64,000 bases of DNA, from NCBI RefSeq assembly GCF_057098645.1, contig NZ_CM169472.1; one strand, written 5' to 3'. The position numbers and the translations under genes are program-made. Shown piece by piece: positions 43,790 to 50,222 of this stretch; within the stretch, counting starts at the first letter, position 1; each line of letters begins with the position of its first letter. The notes beneath the pieces are model-generated. The model was not told the origin of the DNA. It made no database searches and worked only from the letters and a program-made list of their open reading frames with translations.

Positions 43790-44467
43790 ATGAAGTGGGA
43801 CTGGATTTTCTTTGATGCCGATGAAACGCTGTTTACCTTTGACTCATTCACCGGCCTGCAGCGGATGTTTCTTGATTACAGCGTCAACTTTACCGCTGAA
43901 GATTTTCAGGACTATCAGGCCGTTAACAAGCCACTGTGGGTGGATTATCAAAACGGCGCGATCACTTCATTACAGCTTCAGCACGGGCGTTTCGAGAGCT
44001 GGGCCGAACGGCTGAAAGTTGAAGCAGGCTTGCTTAACGATGCCTTTATTAATGCGATGGCGGAAATCTGTACGCCGTTGCCGGGCGCGGTTTCTCTGCT
44101 TAACGCCATTCGTGGCAACGCTAAAATCGGCATCATCACCAACGGTTTTAGCGCCTTGCAGCAAGTGCGTCTGGAACGGACGGGCCTGCGTGATTACTTC
44201 GATTTGCTGGTGATTTCCGAAGAAGTTGGCGTTGCCAAACCGAATAAGAAAATTTTCGATTATGCGCTGGAACAGGCGGGCAATCCTGACCGTTCACGCG
44301 TGCTGATGGTTGGCGACACTGCCGAGTCCGATATTCTCGGTGGCATCAACGCCGGGCTTGCGACCTGCTGGCTGAATGCGCACAATCGCGAGCAACCAGA
44401 AGGCATCGCGCCCACCTGGACCGTTTCTTCGTTGCACGAACTGGAGCAGCTCCTGTGTAAACACTGA
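43790..44467 (+). CDS. yjjG: HAD-family pyrimidine 5'-nucleotidase YjjG
   Basis: 225-aa [20 protein letters not shown]… with HAD motif I DxDxT. Confidence 0.85.
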
Positions 44468-44557
44468 TTGCCTCCCCCCCGTTGATGGGTAAAATAGCCG
44501 CAATTTTTCGTTTTCAACAAGCGCGGCGCGATGCCGCTTACTCAAGAAGAAAGAATT

Positions 44558-44632
44558 ATGACGTTGTCTCCTTATTTGCAAGAGGTGGCGAAGCGCCGCA
44601 CTTTTGCCATTATTTCTCACCCCAATAATTAA
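44558..44632 (+). pseudogene. prfC: 5' remnant of peptide chain release factor 3 gene, truncated by prophage insertion
   Basis: ATG 44558 gives [22 protein letters not shown] then NN-stop; the expected continuation DAGKTT (GTPase P-loop) is missing and AT-rich phage DNA follows. Confidence 0.75.
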
Positions 44633-44779
44633 GCCCAAATTAAAGCTCTTTTACTCTTTCAAAGTCCTTTCAGTTAATTGAGTGTTAATCATATAACTCA
44701 TTTAATAACATGATGTTATGTGGTTTCTTTAATTGAAAATTCTTTCATGTAACTTTAAATCGATCAGGTTGCTTTCATC

Positions 44780-44852
44780 AAAAATCTGTACATGTGCTTG
44801 TACATAATGTACAAAACAGCAGAGGTGGTTTTTTATTTGTACAAGGTGAGTA
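44780..44852. repeat. TGTACA-containing repeats upstream of int (candidate arm-type or operator-like sites)
   Basis: tgtacatgtgcttgtacataatgtacaaaac … tttgtacaagg: four TGTACA motifs within about 60 bp. Confidence 0.35.
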
Positions 44853-46091
44853 ATGGCGCTGTCTGATGCGTGGTTGCGTTCAGTCGTTGGAAAGGAACGT
44901 GATAAGGTTTTGGTTAAATCCGATCGTGATGGTCTGTCTGTCAGAGTATCACCGAAAGGTCGCGTAGTGTTCCAATATCGTTATCAATGGGCAGGGAAAG
45001 GTGAGCGCCTTGATATCGGAACTTACCCGGCAACTGGATTAAAAGAGGCCAGAGAAGAAGTTATCCGTCTCCGTGGTGAACTCGAGTCAAACCGCAATCC
45101 ACGATTAGTCAAGCAGGCTGAAAAACGAAAAGCTACTGAAGCTATGACGGTAGAGTCTGTGATCCGTGCCTGGTATGAAGCATATTGTGTAAAAAATAAA
45201 AAAGGTTCTGAACAGATACTCCGCTCGTTTGAGCTGCACCTGTTCTCTAAAATCGGGAATATCCCTCACGATGCAGCTACATTGCATGATTGGTTAGAAG
45301 TCCTGGAGCCTCTTAGCACTAAGACTCCAGCAATAGCAGACCGATTGCTAATTAACGCAAAGCAGGCCCATGTCTGGGCGTATAAGAGAAAGCTCATTGA
45401 AACTCGCCCGCTGTCGGATATCACGGGTAAAGATATGGATATCCGTAAAGGTCAGAAGAAACGGTTTCTGACACATGATGAAATTAAAATCCTTTATGCT
45501 GCGATCGATGGTTCTCGAATGGTTCCCAAATACCGGGCCTTCATTAAACTATTGCTGCATTTCGGCTGTCGTAGTTCAGAGCTGATTACTGCCAGGGTGG
45601 ATGATTTTGATTTCATTAATAAGGTATGGACTGTACCGCCAGAACGACATAAGACAGGTGATATAACAGGCGAACCGCTAAAGCGCCCCATTATTGAACC
45701 GGTTGAAGAGCTTATAAAATACGTTATCTCTATGAACAACGGTTCCGATATGCTTTTTACCAAGGAAGGAAGCAAGGAGCCAGTTGGTCGGACATCATTG
45801 CAGTCGCTGCCTTACAATTTAATGCAGTACGCATGGCGGCGTTTGGGGTATCAATTTCCTCATTGGTCTCTTCATGATTTGAGACGAACAGCACGAACAA
45901 ACTTTTCTGATCTTACTGCGCCTCATATTGCTGAAATAATGCTCGGTCATAAACTGCCAGGGGTATGGCAAGTTTATGATAAGAGCGATTATCTAGAAGA
46001 ACAGCGTAAAGCCTATCAGGCATGGTGGGATAGGGTTGATTCGATTCTTACTTACACTAATTTAGGTTCCAACAGACAGCCTATTGAATAA
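44853..46091 (+). CDS. int: Phage tyrosine integrase (P4-type family)
   Basis: 412-aa ORF with catalytic-domain motifs (…HFGCRSSELITARVDDF…, …HDLRRTARTNFSDL…, …GHKLPGVWQVYDKSDYLEEQRK…); first gene inside the junction. Confidence 0.9.
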   Translation: MALSDAWLRSVVGKERDKVLVKSDRDGLSVRVSPKGRVVFQYRYQWAGKGERLDIGTYPATGLKEAREEVIRLRGELESNRNPRLVKQAEKRKATEAMTVESVIRAWYEAYCVKNKKGSEQILRSFELHLFSKIGNIPHDAATLHDWLEVLEPLSTKTPAIADRLLINAKQAHVWAYKRKLIETRPLSDITGKDMDIRKGQKKRFLTHDEIKILYAAIDGSRMVPKYRAFIKLLLHFGCRSSELITARVDDFDFINKVWTVPPERHKTGDITGEPLKRPIIEPVEELIKYVISMNNGSDMLFTKEGSKEPVGRTSLQSLPYNLMQYAWRRLGYQFPHWSLHDLRRTARTNFSDLTAPHIAEIMLGHKLPGVWQVYDKSDYLEEQRKAYQAWWDRVDSILTYTNLGSNRQPIE

Positions 46092-46196
46092 TGAATAGAC
46101 ATACAGAGTAAGAAAATAGTAATGATTCTTGGATTATAATTAACTGGTTGCTGATATTTTGATTTGCCGATTTATGAAGAGACGGTCATTATACTT

Positions 46197-46237
46197 ATAA
46201 AAACACCACTCCTTATCCTTACAGAAATAAGGAGTGG
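46197..46237 (-). terminator. Terminator of the cargo operon (bidirectional, between convergent int and the cargo gene)
   Basis: 11-bp stem ccactccttat / ataaggagtgg with loop ccttacagaa; on the minus strand it is followed by TTTTTATAA. Confidence 0.5.
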
Positions 46238-46243
46238 AAACAG

Positions 46244-47851
46244 TTATGGCTGAGACTCTGGTTTAGCAATCTCGTTTATAAATTTCTTAGCTACAACAGT
46301 CTCATACTTTCTATAATCATCAAGATATTGAACATCTATATGATTTTCGTAGCGAGCATTAAATTTATTTGCAGCCCCTGTTTTATCATCTTTACGTTCA
46401 TCCGTTGGTCTGAAAAATTTATGGTAGCGGCGGGGTGATACCCCCTCAAAATCACAAAATATTACTTTGGAAGATTCTTCGTTCTTTGTTATTGCATCAT
46501 TATGCAGATCAAGAGCAAGACTTTTATCAAATGGCTCTATATATACTACTTTTTTTATTCCAGCTGCGACAATATGCCTTGCACAGTTGTGGCAGGGATA
46601 GGTTGTCGTAAAAAGAATTTTATCTTTAGTATCGCCGTTTTGTTTTCTAGCCATTGATGTAATGACGTCCATTTCAGCATGAATTGATCTGGAGTACTCC
46701 ATTACACTTGATATTTTGCTGTCTTTGTAAATGCCTTCTGCAATATTATCTAATTTGTTTAGAAGTCGTGTTATATTAATATCGGCAACAGTTTGTCCTG
46801 CGGAAATACCTAATACAGTTCTTACTTCGGTTGATAATATGCTTTTTATACGGTCTTTAATTTTTAGCTTGTTTGCATCATTATAACACTTACCACTTTT
46901 GTGAACGCATCGATGATCGTTATCAAAATCATCACTGCTATACAACCCGCCACCAGCTTTAGGTACGTCGTTCTTACCCACGGCAAGCAAATTCCCTTCA
47001 TCATCAAACAGTGCAGCCCCTACTTGACGTGATAAACAAGCTGATTGTAATGATGTTGAAAAGGCAGCATACATACCTTTCTCGTTAAAAGTTGGTGTTA
47101 AACCATTTTTGCCATGAATAAGACCGAAAAACCGATCAATCTTCTTCTTTAATTCACTTTTTTGGCTGAAGTTATTTTTAATAAAAAAATCTGAATCAAG
47201 AATGGTTTCCCCGGTTCTTTGTCCATACGGATCAGAGGATTTATTATCAATATTGATAATTAAATGAAGGTCGTTCTTTGTCGATTCGTCATCAATGAGA
47301 TTCTGAATTCGGTAATCTAAATCGCGCAAAACTCCTAACAAATAGAAATTATGCTGATATATAACTCTGAATAACTCTATTTCTTCCGGCCTTTTGAATT
47401 GATCAATGATGAAGACAGTACCTTTATATTCATCATTATTATAATCATTATTATAATCAATATTATTTTTCTCTGCTGCGATTGCTGCAATAGCAGCTTC
47501 TGCAAGCAACTCATTTTTTTTGTAATGTTTACGAAGTTTATTGGCAATATCCTGGAGTTTTAAATGTCTATTAGCTTGTGTGCTTTCGGATACCTTCAGT
47601 GCTGCTGGCTCAAAATATAATGGGTTTTCCATAAGCGCACTTATGCGGATGTGTACAACATTATACCCCCATTCTTTGGATATCTCTTCGATAATTTTGT
47701 TTATCGTTCTCATGCCACATCCAACATATCCACACAATCCAAGATAAATATCTTTTGATTGTCGTGAATTCACAATCTCAAGTGATGATGCCGATGTTGA
47801 GCCTTTTTTTTCATTCAGCTTTTGTGGAGTTTTTTTTGCTGCTTCAGCCAT
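46244..47851 (-). CDS. Fusion protein: N-terminal degenerate P-loop kinase-like domain + C-terminal zinc-dependent deoxycytidylate/cytidine deaminase domain; candidate antiphage nucleotide-depletion enzyme
   Basis: 535-aa ORF. C-terminal half has the CDA-fold motifs …RQVGAALFDDEGNLLAVGKNDVP…, …SIHAEMDVITSMA… and …TYPCHNCARHIVAAGIKKVVYIEPF… (H-A-E / P-C-x-x-C). N-terminal half has a glycine-rich loop DIYLGLCGYVGCGMRT and a hydrophobic strand followed by Asp (TVFIIDQF). AT-rich; lies between int and xis. Confidence 0.6.
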   Translation of the reverse strand: MAEAAKKTPQKLNEKKGSTSASSLEIVNSRQSKDIYLGLCGYVGCGMRTINKIIEEISKEWGYNVVHIRISALMENPLYFEPAALKVSESTQANRHLKLQDIANKLRKHYKKNELLAEAAIAAIAAEKNNIDYNNDYNNDEYKGTVFIIDQFKRPEEIELFRVIYQHNFYLLGVLRDLDYRIQNLIDDESTKNDLHLIINIDNKSSDPYGQRTGETILDSDFFIKNNFSQKSELKKKIDRFFGLIHGKNGLTPTFNEKGMYAAFSTSLQSACLSRQVGAALFDDEGNLLAVGKNDVPKAGGGLYSSDDFDNDHRCVHKSGKCYNDANKLKIKDRIKSILSTEVRTVLGISAGQTVADINITRLLNKLDNIAEGIYKDSKISSVMEYSRSIHAEMDVITSMARKQNGDTKDKILFTTTYPCHNCARHIVAAGIKKVVYIEPFDKSLALDLHNDAITKNEESSKVIFCDFEGVSPRRYHKFFRPTDERKDDKTGAANKFNARYENHIDVQYLDDYRKYETVVAKKFINEIAKPESQP

Positions 47852-47861
47852 TGCTAATTAC

Positions 47862-48047
47862 CTAGTCGAAAACTATATCAGTATTTATTATTTCAAAAAA
47901 TGCATCAAGAATTTCTTTATTTTTCTTTTTACTTTCAAATGAAATGACATTATCTTGATTAAATGTTGTTAATTCAATGCAGATAGAATCAACCTGATCA
48001 TTGGCGGCGATGCTCGATTCTATTTCATTAAATGCTATTACATTCAT
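47862..48047 (-). CDS. Small acidic hypothetical protein co-oriented with and 10 nt upstream of the deaminase gene
   Basis: 61-aa ORF MNVIAFNEIESSIAANDQVDSICIELTTFNQDNVISFESKKKNKEILDAFFEIINTDIVFD with ATG start; same AT-rich composition as the downstream gene; weak Shine-Dalgarno. Confidence 0.35.
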   Translation of the reverse strand: MNVIAFNEIESSIAANDQVDSICIELTTFNQDNVISFESKKKNKEILDAFFEIINTDIVFD

Positions 48048-48391
48048 TTATCTTATCCAAACATAATAAAAAACCATATGGCCTTTAGTGTACAACAAAA
48101 CCATACTCTTTCCCCTCATTTTAGAGGGGGAAGTGTGGTCCACATCATGTTTTTTCCCACCCATGAAAATGTTCACCTAGGCTGGTGATGCATTTTATGT
48201 ACATCAACTCTTTGAGTTGAATCATTATTTTAGTATTTTTTCTATCATTGTGTAAATGTCTTCGTTTCAATACATCATGCTTGGGGAGCGGTCCCCGTTT
48301 CCTGATAATTAATGCTTGTGGATAGCAACGTCCGTGCCTGTATCGCTCAGACAGACGCTTACCGTGCCATAGACGTGTCTGTTCACATACG

Positions 48392-48586
48392 TCATTCAAT
48401 AACTCCTGCAAACCTGTAAATCTTGCGTGAAGCCCATTTATTTGGGCATGATTTAATATCAGGATCTGGAAAATCAGGCCTGTACTTCTGGCCAGTTCTC
48501 CGGTTTACGCTGTTCCAGCGAAGAACTGTCGATACTGAAACGCCACAGAAGTCGGCGACTTGTTTAGTTGTCATTAAGTTGTTCAT
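48392..48586 (-). CDS. xis: Excisionase / AlpA-family DNA-binding protein
   Basis: 64-aa ORF MNNLMTTKQVADFCGVSVSTVLRWNSVNRRTGQKYRPDFPDP… (winged-helix excisionase signature). Confidence 0.7.
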   Translation of the reverse strand: MNNLMTTKQVADFCGVSVSTVLRWNSVNRRTGQKYRPDFPDPDIKSCPNKWASRKIYRFAGVIE

Positions 48587-49206
48587 TACTTCACCTCCTG
48601 CGGCGGTTCCGGTAGCGGCATCCAGTGGGTTACTTTCGATGCCGGTTCTTCTCCATTGTCAGTAACTGCCCACCATTTGTTTCTCGAACAATCATAATAC
48701 CCTTCGAAGGTATCGCACTCAGTCCAGCCGTAAGACTTACCCCGACACCAAACATACTGTTTATCGTTCGGCATTCGCTCACTACAGCTTATCCAACCAT
48801 CCGGAGTTACCGGAGAGTTGCCCGACAGCTTGTTCAACTTGTAAGTCTGGCTTACAGGTTTGGCACCATGAAGCATGGTGGCGCGGCAGGCGTTCCAGCC
48901 TTCATCAAAACCGACTATGCCATTATTTAAAGACGGACGAGCATCTGGCACCACCAGTACTGGCTTGGCTATATATAGCGGCTGAACATACCAGCCCTTT
49001 GATAACCAACTGTCAGCAATGTTTTTGCTCCTGGTTATTGCCGGAATACCTAAGCCATTGTCTGAATGCAGCCATGCCACCGGCTCCTCTTCCAGCGATG
49101 CCAGAGCAATTTCATAAGCACGGCGCTCAATATCGTCTCGAACCTCTAGGCTGCTGATTCGTTCTTTGATTTCTTTAATCAGTTCTTTATTGGTAAATGT
49201 GGTCAT
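48586..49206 (-). CDS. Prophage early protein (DUF551 / YfdT-like)
   Basis: 206-aa ORF, Cys/Trp-rich C-terminal half (…WISCSERMPNDKQYVWCRGKSYGWTECDTFEGYYDCSRNKWW…); stop/start overlap with neighbours. Confidence 0.5.
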   Translation of the reverse strand: MTTFTNKELIKEIKERISSLEVRDDIERRAYEIALASLEEEPVAWLHSDNGLGIPAITRSKNIADSWLSKGWYVQPLYIAKPVLVVPDARPSLNNGIVGFDEGWNACRATMLHGAKPVSQTYKLNKLSGNSPVTPDGWISCSERMPNDKQYVWCRGKSYGWTECDTFEGYYDCSRNKWWAVTDNGEEPASKVTHWMPLPEPPQEVK

Positions 49207-49568
49207 TATGCTCCAGCCTCCGGCGCTTTGGGTATTACTGCCCAGTGAGTGATATTGAAGTTTTCAAGGTCCCCGACCTGAAATGTCCACTGCCATTCTC
49301 CGGTTTCTTTTTGTCCCCAGGTGTACCAGAGAGAACGCCAGCCAATCAGCCAGCCTTCTCCGTTAGCATCAAATAACAGAACACTTTCATTTGCTGGTGG
49401 CAGTTCAGCTGACACTGGTATTATTTTGTTTTCCAGTGCCGCACATTTAGCTTCAAGCGCGTCGAATTTACGTACCAGGTACTCAGCATTTGTTTCGTTC
49501 ACTTTCAGATCTCGCGGTACACATTTCCCGCGAAGAAACCCTTCCATTTCGAAAACATTCATGCGCAT
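49206..49568 (-). CDS. Prophage early protein (YfdS-like)
   Basis: 120-aa ORF in an overlapping operon arrangement. Confidence 0.5.
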   Translation of the reverse strand: MRMNVFEMEGFLRGKCVPRDLKVNETNAEYLVRKFDALEAKCAALENKIIPVSAELPPANESVLLFDANGEGWLIGWRSLWYTWGQKETGEWQWTFQVGDLENFNITHWAVIPKAPEAGA

Positions 49569-50095
49569 TTGCGTAACTCCGATAATTCGTTAAAGCGTTC
49601 CATAAACATCCCGTAGGCATGGCCTGGAGCCAGTGGAATCACGTTGATCATCTCTGTTGCCGGGATACCTTCCAGCACAGGCCAGAAAGAGCCATCATCA
49701 AGCCCGAGATCGCGGCGTTCGGTTGCCAGCATGATGAGATCGGCATATTTCACGGGTGTACTCATAACCGGGGGTAACCCGTATTTCTCACGGATTACGG
49801 CGTCTATTTTTTCTTCCATCCGTTTATAGTCAGGAAGAAGGCGTTTCAGTGGAGCCGGGATGTCCTGGCAATACGCTTCTGTTGCATCATGCATTAACGC
49901 TTCAAAAGCAAATTCCTGCGGTACCAGTTTGCTGCAAAGCACCGCATGTTGGGCGACGCTGTAGAAGTGTGAAAGATGACCGGCAAAGCGACAGATATTT
50001 GAAAGGGAAACTGCGATATCGTTAATCACGATGTCGTCTTTATTTATCCTGTCATAATAAAAATGCTTCCCGGAAAAAGTTTTAATAAATGACAT
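49559..50095 (-). CDS. HD-domain phosphohydrolase, YfbR/YfdR-like 5'-deoxynucleotidase
   Basis: ORF 49559..50122; from MSFIKT… 178 aa; HD motif context (…NICRFAGHLSHFYSVAQHAVLCS…, …HDATEAYCQDIP…). Confidence 0.7.
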   Translation of the reverse strand: MSFIKTFSGKHFYYDRINKDDIVINDIAVSLSNICRFAGHLSHFYSVAQHAVLCSKLVPQEFAFEALMHDATEAYCQDIPAPLKRLLPDYKRMEEKIDAVIREKYGLPPVMSTPVKYADLIMLATERRDLGLDDGSFWPVLEGIPATEMINVIPLAPGHAYGMFMERFNELSELRKCA

Positions 50096-50222
50096 TTTGT
50101 TCTCCACGTATATGCGCTGCACCGCGCTGAATTTTGGTTAAAGAAAACCCTCGCCATCAGGCGATTATTGAGTCAATTATGTTTCCATAAATGCCCCCGC
50201 AGGGGCATTTGCAGTAAGGAAA

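Follow-up and report, generated by a model that had tools for sequence, protein, structure and literature searches.

The 64,000-nucleotide stretch of the E. coli chromosome analysed here (contig NZ_CM169472.1; "the window") carries on its minus strand a gene for an anti-phage deoxycytidine triphosphate (dCTP) deaminase of the DCD/AvcD family, and directly upstream of it a small open reading frame (ORF). The small ORF and the deaminase gene together form a module of two genes, carried as cargo by an E. coli prophage that is integrated in the 5' end of prfC. The favoured explanation, to which we assign a probability of about 0.85, is that this is a DCD/AvcD defence module that would be kept inactive in the lysogen and would deplete deoxycytidine (dC) nucleotides when an infecting phage shuts off host transcription. 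In addition, a comparison of the small upstream locus across distant relatives suggests that it encodes a protein.

The deaminase is a clear full-length member of the DCD/AvcD family, as the sequence-only reading of this DNA had proposed. The PADLOC dCTPase model PDLC02373 matched amino acids 10-533 with E = 1.9e-164, and the NCBIfam equivalog NF041025 ("anti-phage dCTP deaminase") matched amino acids 35-487 over model positions 2-437 of 437, scoring 464.7 bits against a curated cut-off of 400. The identical protein WP_088129574.1 bears the same name in RefSeq, and the identical 2.6 kb are present in NZ_CP062901.1. Because the PADLOC and NF041025 models and the RefSeq name all recognize it, the gene is already known to annotation pipelines and is not new. 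Copies covering at least 80% of the deaminase gene were found by blastn in 48 of 5,426 complete E. coli genomes. The start codon is backed by homologues that align from the first residues, and the window protein agreed with the DCD/AvcD family in every sequence and fold feature tested.

All of the motif strings quoted in that reading are present in the 535-amino-acid protein. These are the glycine-rich loop, the hydrophobic strand with a terminal Asp (VFIIDQ, amino acids 145-151), RQVGAALFDDEGNLLAVGKN (275-294), HAEMDVI (391-397) and YPCHNCARHIVAAGIKKVVY (418-437). In the C-terminal half, the expected deaminase-fold match was obtained with Pfam dCMP_cyt_deam_1 (PF00383, amino acids 256-438, E = 6.5e-14), a value at which a chance resemblance in sequence is by far excluded. 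Sequence matches of this domain in the PDB were the deoxycytidine monophosphate (dCMP) deaminases of T4, human and S. mutans; only dCMP deaminase domains and no solved full-length relative were found by this search. An alignment of 24 homologues that reach down to 40% identity (alignment A2) shows no variation at P419, C420, H421 and C423 or in the HAE motif.

The fold was predicted with AlphaFold2 (AF2) on the homologue alignment, and the resulting model has a mean pLDDT (the per-residue confidence score) of 82 and a pTM (the overall fold confidence score) of 0.76. It indicates a two-domain protein with an adenylate-kinase-like N-terminal domain and a dCMP-deaminase-like C-terminal domain. 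No Pfam family matched the N-terminal half, and it was structure prediction followed by Foldseek that revealed the kinase-like fold there: pLDDT is mostly at least 90 across amino acids ~30-245, and the matches in the PDB were an adenylate-kinase-related protein (3h0k/3lw7), dephospho-CoA kinase (4i1u) and archaeal adenylate kinases, with E = 1e-6 to 1e-4 for the adenylate-kinase-related and dephospho-CoA kinases. For the C-terminal domain, Foldseek returned the human (2w4l), T4 (1vq2), S. mutans (2hvw) and cyanophage S-TIM5 (4p9e) enzymes and the PBCV-1 bi-DCD (7fh4), with target-normalised TM-scores (template modelling scores) of 0.66-0.82 for dCMP deaminase structures.

The glycine-rich loop had been described as a degenerate P-loop. 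The Walker lysine is indeed absent; its position is hydrophobic (M, I, V, L, F or A) in all 24 homologues, while C40, G41 and G44 are invariant and G46 is nearly so. This conservation makes the lysine-less loop a trait of the whole family rather than a peculiarity of this gene or the sign of a decayed copy. D150, Q151 and K153, at the end of strand E145-150 of the model, are likewise invariant. The N-terminal domain may be a sensor rather than an active kinase, as had been supposed. The residues that were mutated in the V. cholerae protein (S52, D162/Q163, E384, C411/C414) can be related to these motifs by motif equivalence only, as the numbering of the retrieved sequence differs. The window allele also contains a 12-nucleotide tandem repeat that lies within the kinase-like domain and encodes a low-confidence surface loop (residues 131-140, pLDDT 67). 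Most alleles have 531 amino acids, and the window allele has 535 because it carries one repeat unit more.

The position of the module was as expected for prophage cargo. The deaminase gene lies between the integrase gene (int) and an excisionase (xis)-like gene, rather than in a nucleotide-metabolism operon, and it has its own terminator. Its AT-richness had also been remarked upon, and is confirmed: the GC (guanine plus cytosine) content is 0.33-0.37 at 46000-48000, whereas int has 0.44-0.45 and the early-left genes have 0.43-0.50. The module is thus AT-rich and self-contained, and its place between int and xis fits a cargo position. The sequence-only reading had treated the deaminase gene as standing alone, and the small ORF 10 nucleotides upstream had been overlooked. 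The 309 bp upstream of the deaminase were found in all 48 E. coli genomes with the deaminase and in no others (48/48). As in the AvcID systems, a small locus is present on the same strand 5' of the deaminase, with the size and position seen in enterotoxigenic E. coli (ETEC), and the two always co-occur.

Two groups reported the family in 2021-22, and several relatives of this protein have been studied. Tal et al. (10.1101/2021.04.26.441389) expressed the homologues of E. coli U09 and AW1.7 from their native promoters and observed defence against several phages; dCTP was depleted upon T7 infection, and the Gly-Cys pair in the nucleotide-binding loop of the AW1.7 protein was essential. Hsueh et al. 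(10.1101/2021.03.31.437871, PMC10511110) characterized DcdV/AvcD of V. cholerae and homologues from V. parahaemolyticus, P. mirabilis and ETEC H10407. The locus immediately 5' of it, DifV/AvcI, inhibits the enzyme post-translationally and was reported to act as an RNA (10.1101/2021.03.31.437871; PMC10511110). In the ETEC system, dC nucleotides were lowered and protection against T3, SECphi17, SECphi18 and SECphi27 was observed (PMC10511110; 10.1101/2021.03.31.437871). AvcI RNA was lost after treatment with rifampicin or infection with T5 or T7, and AvcD was activated by rifampicin, not by spectinomycin (PMC10511110).

The closest of these to the window protein is AvcD of ETEC H10407, which is encoded on the 5.8-kb mobilisable plasmid p58 (NC_017723.1), in contrast to the chromosomal prophage location of the window copy. 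The two proteins are 60% identical and 77% similar from end to end (532 and 535 amino acids) and have all of the catalytic and glycine-loop motifs in common. Plasmid p58 also carries an ORF of 61 amino acids upstream on the same strand, with a gap of 12 nucleotides to the deaminase where the window has 10. The ends of the two small ORFs are alike (...EIINTDIVFD in the window, ...KILKKEIILD in ETEC), while overall they are ~22-30% identical and the BLASTP match is not significant (E = 0.79).

AvcD (DcdV) of V. cholerae VSP-1 and V. parahaemolyticus is more distant, with 44-45% identity (45% for V. cholerae) and the same two-domain architecture, and has an extra insertion of ~30-40 amino acids in the deaminase domain. 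A same-strand small ORF of 56-58 amino acids is found upstream here too; it is separated from the deaminase by 76-77 nucleotides instead of 10, and it ends in ...A-x-K/Q-L-G-W-stop where the window clade has ...I-V-F-D-stop. The Vibrio AvcI was reported as an abundant separate RNA of ~280 nucleotides (PMC10511110) that terminates separately and reaches 20-60-fold the level of avcD in V. cholerae. The AW1.7 and U09 proteins share the PADLOC/NCBIfam family and the kinase-like plus zinc-deaminase architecture of the window protein. The AW1.7 protein, compared by its published description, has 576 amino acids and a spacing of 31 residues between the mutated zinc ligands C370 and C401, features that place it in a different subclade from the window protein.

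We infer the substrate, the trigger, the inhibition by the upstream locus and the protection of the lysogen from these relatives, for which infection-triggered dCTP deamination and phage protection are known (ETEC, Vibrio and AW1.7, all at most 60% identical to the window protein). In an uninfected lysogen, the deaminase would be present, and one or more products of the neighbouring small locus would keep it inactive. Shut-off of host transcription by an infecting phage would lead to the loss of the short-lived upstream inhibitor (AvcI RNA in Vibrio), and the released zinc deaminase domain would convert dCTP, and by the Vibrio and ETEC work also dCMP, to deoxyuridine forms. The dC pool would then collapse and phage DNA replication would stall. 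Activity would also require the lysine-less kinase-like domain, which most likely serves to bind nucleotides.

Relatives of the module were found on V. cholerae VSP-1, beside AAA_15/AAA_21 genes, in conjugative-transfer clusters with TraG, TraU and TraC as neighbours, in elements resembling integrative and conjugative elements (ICE-like), and on small mobilisable plasmids of 4.6-5.8 kb, one of which has the module beside a RelE/ParE toxin gene. The plasmid and conjugative relatives include p58 itself (locus L002), NZ_CP148273.1 (H125), NZ_CP128792.1 (H126) and the loci L085 and L086. The module moves among very different kinds of mobile element, and dCTP deaminases have been found to be enriched in defence islands (10.1101/2021.04.26.441389).

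These same small plasmids and conjugative elements are what would be expected if the module were mainly a toxin-antitoxin addiction cassette that stabilises its mobile element, with phage defence as a side effect, and AvcD homologues are indeed toxic, causing filamentation, when the cognate upstream locus is missing (10.1101/2021.03.31.437871). We regard this as unlikely to be the main role, as defence was measured directly for several homologues (10.1101/2021.04.26.441389; PMC10511110), although the two roles are compatible with each other. The expectation for a type III toxin-antitoxin pair, in which the antitoxin is a structured, often repeat-bearing non-coding RNA that is separately terminated or processed, does not describe the window locus. 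No RNA family, excess of folding, conserved structure or repeat was found there, the gap to the deaminase is 10 nucleotides, and the small ORF is under coding selection.

A DCD/AvcD defence module is also strongly preferred over a phage or housekeeping dCMP deaminase that would serve the prophage's own nucleotide metabolism by supplying deoxyuridine monophosphate (dUMP) for deoxythymidine triphosphate (dTTP) synthesis. The catalytic domain is homologous to the T4 and cellular dCMP deaminases, and T4 Cd, human DCTD and PBCV-1 bi-DCD have the cytidine deaminase (CDA) fold and the HAE/PCxxC zinc site in common with it. A YfdR-type 5'-deoxynucleotidase gene (49559..50122) is moreover present in the same early-left region. 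In contrast to the window protein, the housekeeping and phage enzymes have no kinase-like N-terminal domain and no small partner gene, and they show ~28% identity over ~60-180 residues and differ in substrate and regulation. The T-even dCMP deaminases match amino acids 263-444 only, with 28-29% identity, whereas the full-length two-domain architecture matches the defence equivalog NF041025 above its curated cut-off. Furthermore, the gene forms a module apart, AT-rich and with a terminator of its own, beside int and outside nucleotide-metabolism operons, and its close relatives are located on small plasmids, ICE-like elements and VSP-1. A metabolic role is thus very improbable. Least probable of all is APOBEC-like editing of phage DNA or RNA instead of depletion of free nucleotides: the weak Pfam matches to MafB19, SNAD4, APOBEC2 and NAD1 deaminase families (amino acids 382-439, E = 5e-7 to 0.04) span the shared zinc-binding core only, the best structure and sequence matches are dCMP deaminases, and no editing by the AW1.7 homologue was detected by DNA-seq and RNA-seq (10.1101/2021.04.26.441389).

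The small upstream ORF was then considered as a gene in its own right. PGAP usually does not annotate it, and it matched no model in Pfam, NCBIfam or PADLOC; its PHROGs match is phrog_9966, of unknown function. The stop codon of the small ORF coincides in part with TAGGTAAT, the likely ribosome-binding site of the deaminase, and this overlap suggests translational coupling.

Upstream regions were compared across 80 loci from a one-genome-per-species collection, together with V. cholerae, V. parahaemolyticus and four intermediate loci. On the sense strand, 62% of the 330-nucleotide upstream regions contain an ORF that begins with ATG and has 50 amino acids or more; the antisense strand has one in 5% of cases, and shuffled sequences in 9% (median GC 0.38). 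Most of the small-ORF translations end in the motif A-x3-[IVL]-x3-A-x-K-L-x-W-stop (the W type), and a Shine-Dalgarno-like motif lies 9-14 nucleotides before the ATG in most small ORFs, the window clade being without it. The pattern of conservation is that of a coding sequence. The conserved residues carry 1-2 bits of information at codon positions 1 and 2 and ~0.1 bit at position 3; the Leu codons at the motif include CTT, CTA, CTC, TTA and TTG, and for Ala all four GCN codons are used. In the 48 nucleotides past the stop codon, the information is flat at 0.09-0.13 bits. The ratio of non-synonymous to synonymous substitution rates (dN/dS) of the small ORF is 0.11-0.27 in unsaturated pairs and 0.68 for the pair L003-L004, which has few substitutions. 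For the same pairs, the deaminase has values of 0.05-0.09. Examples of the small ORF in relatives are located at 2753..2923 in L083, 2748..2924 in L084, 2760..2987 in L057 and 3704..3928 in L063.

A search with the W-type profile through the six-frame translations of all loci recovered 56 ORFs at E < 0.1, and all of them are same-strand neighbours of the deaminase. In 13 distant loci (Betaproteobacteria, Desulfobacterota and others), the small ORF is located directly downstream of the deaminase. This downstream set had been left out of the first W-type profile, and it has a codon periodicity of the same kind (0.65, 1.25 and 0.39 bits). With the gene order swapped and the peptide motif kept, the small ORF behaves as a protein partner would, unlike a 5' leader RNA.

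The studied Vibrio loci carry the motif as well (...LLEQAKQLGW and ...LIDQASKLGW). By this resemblance, the AvcI loci of V. cholerae and V. parahaemolyticus, which were published as non-coding, are members of the small-protein family, for which Pfam, NCBIfam and PADLOC contain no model. In the AvcI/DifV literature, the four small ORFs were reported to be without similarity to one another, and the open-access papers and preprints searched, including reviews to 2025-26, contain no mention of a translated AvcI, which appears there only as a non-coding RNA.

The window clade consists of the window, Budvicia, Morganella, Dickeya/Citrobacter, ETEC and three metagenomic relatives. The C-terminal ending common to the small ORFs of this clade is ...K-E-x-[LI]-x-[AS]-F-x-x-I-[ILM]-x-x-[DE]-[IL]-x-[FLY] followed by 0-2 residues, with an aromatic residue or Leu in place of Trp, and the mid motif N-V-[IV]-x-F (DNVISF in the window ORF) is retained in them as well. 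Purifying selection on the peptide within this clade is clear from the dN/dS values, which are 0.18 for the window and Budvicia and 0.26 for the window and Morganella. Formal evidence for homology of the window small ORF to the W-type family is weak. The W-type profile matched it with a hidden Markov model (HMM) E of 0.06-0.08, which makes it the top ORF outside the W type, and hhalign gave P = 9.5e-4 and a probability of 22%. Locus L088 has a deaminase that is 52% identical to that of the window and a W-type partner, so that the window and W types grade into each other. An AF2 model of the deaminase fused to the small ORF through a (GGGGS)6 linker, which was built from 23 paired rows and gave no contact output, has a pLDDT of 77-85 in the C-terminal helix of the small protein and ~27-34 in the rest; its N-terminal two-thirds are predicted to be disordered, and the pTM is 0.68, compared to 0.76 for the deaminase alone.

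On balance, these comparisons favour the view, which we hold with some reserve, that the AvcI locus encodes a conserved protein of ~50-80 amino acids that is an integral second component of dCTP-deaminase systems across phyla, including the ORF of the window. The peptide would carry the mid motif N-V-[IV]-x-F and, at its C terminus, an amphipathic helix that ends in A-x-K-L-x-W-stop, or in the window clade in F/Y plus 0-2 residues. Alone or together with its mRNA, it would help to control the deaminase, and the system would not be a pure type III pair. The RNA activity of AvcI is not contradicted by this, and in Vibrio it is backed by direct experiments. Vibrio constructs with a start codon changed to a stop and constructs without the ribosome-binding site still blocked filamentation (10.1101/2021.03.31.437871), and AvcI made in vitro was reported to bind and inhibit AvcD. 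That rifampicin activates AvcD and spectinomycin does not speaks against a peptide that works as a classical labile type II antitoxin. What is added is that purifying selection acts on the peptide sequence itself. Two possibilities follow: a bifunctional transcript, or a role of the peptide on its own, which may be in assembly, stabilisation or sensing.

Several observations weigh against the proposed defence mechanism as it stands for the window locus. The nearest experimentally tested protein is only 60% identical, and phage specificity varies among the tested homologues. The upstream 249 nucleotides fold no better than shuffled sequences (z = -0.12), and RNAalifold on six clade members, a shallow alignment, found one 6-bp hairpin and a consensus energy of -2.2 kcal/mol, which does not support a conserved structure. 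The 10-nucleotide gap leaves no room for a terminator, so that it is not obvious how a separately terminated, abundant sRNA (small RNA) of the AvcI kind could be made here. Directly before the small ORF, no convincing sigma-70 promoter was found. In the window clade the inhibitor may be the RNA, the peptide or both. Related searches were likewise negative. The ETEC equivalent of the upstream region folds no better than shuffled sequences either (z = -0.55), an Rfam scan of 44000-50000 at E <= 1 gave only a chance match to a microRNA model within int and no RNA family upstream of the deaminase, and no tandem repeats were detected in the small-ORF region.

The coordinates of the module and of the surrounding prophage features are listed in Table 1. 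The left side carries yjjG and the prfC fragment. No repeat of the prfC junction (attR) was found within the window, which implies that the prophage extends past position 64000. The NCBIfam excisionase matches of the xis-like ORF are under the cut-offs (E = 5e-4 to 5e-3), and this ORF has no RefSeq annotation. Rightward of the module, the minus strand carries the xis-like ORF, a DUF551 gene, prophage genes of the yfdR/yfdQ/yfdP type and then a cI-like repressor. The YfdR-type gene, which codes for a second enzyme with deoxynucleotides as substrates, is on the minus strand, 1.7 kb from the dCTP deaminase. The GC-rich hairpin between the xis-like gene and the small ORF may terminate early-left transcription or shield the module from it. 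The terminator scan made no call at this hairpin, and the sole sigma-70 match with 10 of 12 positions (48227..48256) lies upstream of it.

Table 1. Coordinates of the deaminase module, its domains and motifs, and the adjoining prophage features (window positions), with the loci in which the small ORF follows the deaminase.
Feature	Position	Strand	Basis
Anti-phage dCTP deaminase gene (DCD/AvcD family), 535 amino acids, ATG start	46244..47851	-	ORF list and profile matches
N-terminal kinase-like (P-loop-like) domain, predicted, amino acids ~30-245	47117..47764	-	AF2 and Foldseek
Glycine-rich loop GLCGYVGCGMRT, amino acids 38-49, Met at the Walker-A Lys position	47705..47740	-	Sequence
12-nucleotide tandem repeat, 2.9 copies, encodes DYNNDYNND	47432..47466	-	Tandem Repeats Finder (TRF)
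Walker-B-like D150-Q151-x-K153, end of hydrophobic strand	47393..47404	-	Alignment A2 and model
C-terminal zinc deaminase (CDA-fold) domain, amino acids ~256-470	46442..47086	-	Pfam, PDB matches, Foldseek
HAE catalytic motif, H391 A392 E393	46673..46681	-	Invariant in A2
PCHNC zinc-binding motif, P419 C420 H421 N422 C423	46583..46597	-	Sequence, A2
Small ORF, 61 amino acids, ATG start, stop 10 nucleotides before the deaminase ATG; positional equivalent of AvcI/DifV	47862..48047	-	ORF list
Intrinsic terminator, 13-bp stem then T-run, 7 nucleotides past the deaminase stop	46206..46237	-	Terminator scan and sequence
GC-rich hairpin CTTCCCCCTC / GAGGGGAAG between xis-like gene and small ORF	48109..48133	-	Sequence
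xis-like helix-turn-helix ORF, 64 amino acids	48392..48586	-	Weak NCBIfam excisionase matches
Prophage tyrosine integrase	44853..46091	+	NCBIfam integrase matches, RefSeq
prfC 5' end (~22 codons), then AT-rich phage DNA: left prophage junction	44559..44626	+	Sequence; RefSeq partial coding sequence
Small ORF just 3' of the deaminase in L057, L063, L075, L067, L047, L033, L059, L064, L036, L032, L030, L065, L052 and L037			

For the deaminase, the finding adds one further prophage-borne copy of an already-named defence gene, and it illustrates the cargo slot beside int. The small ORF has the wider consequences. If it is translated and functional, the model in which AvcD is restrained by a labile sRNA alone would need revision. 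The single-gene "dCTPdeaminase" definition in PADLOC would then lack a component; the DefenseFinder "dCTPdeaminase" definition is apparently single-gene too. It would also follow that deaminase constructs with and without the upstream 200 bp are not equivalent.

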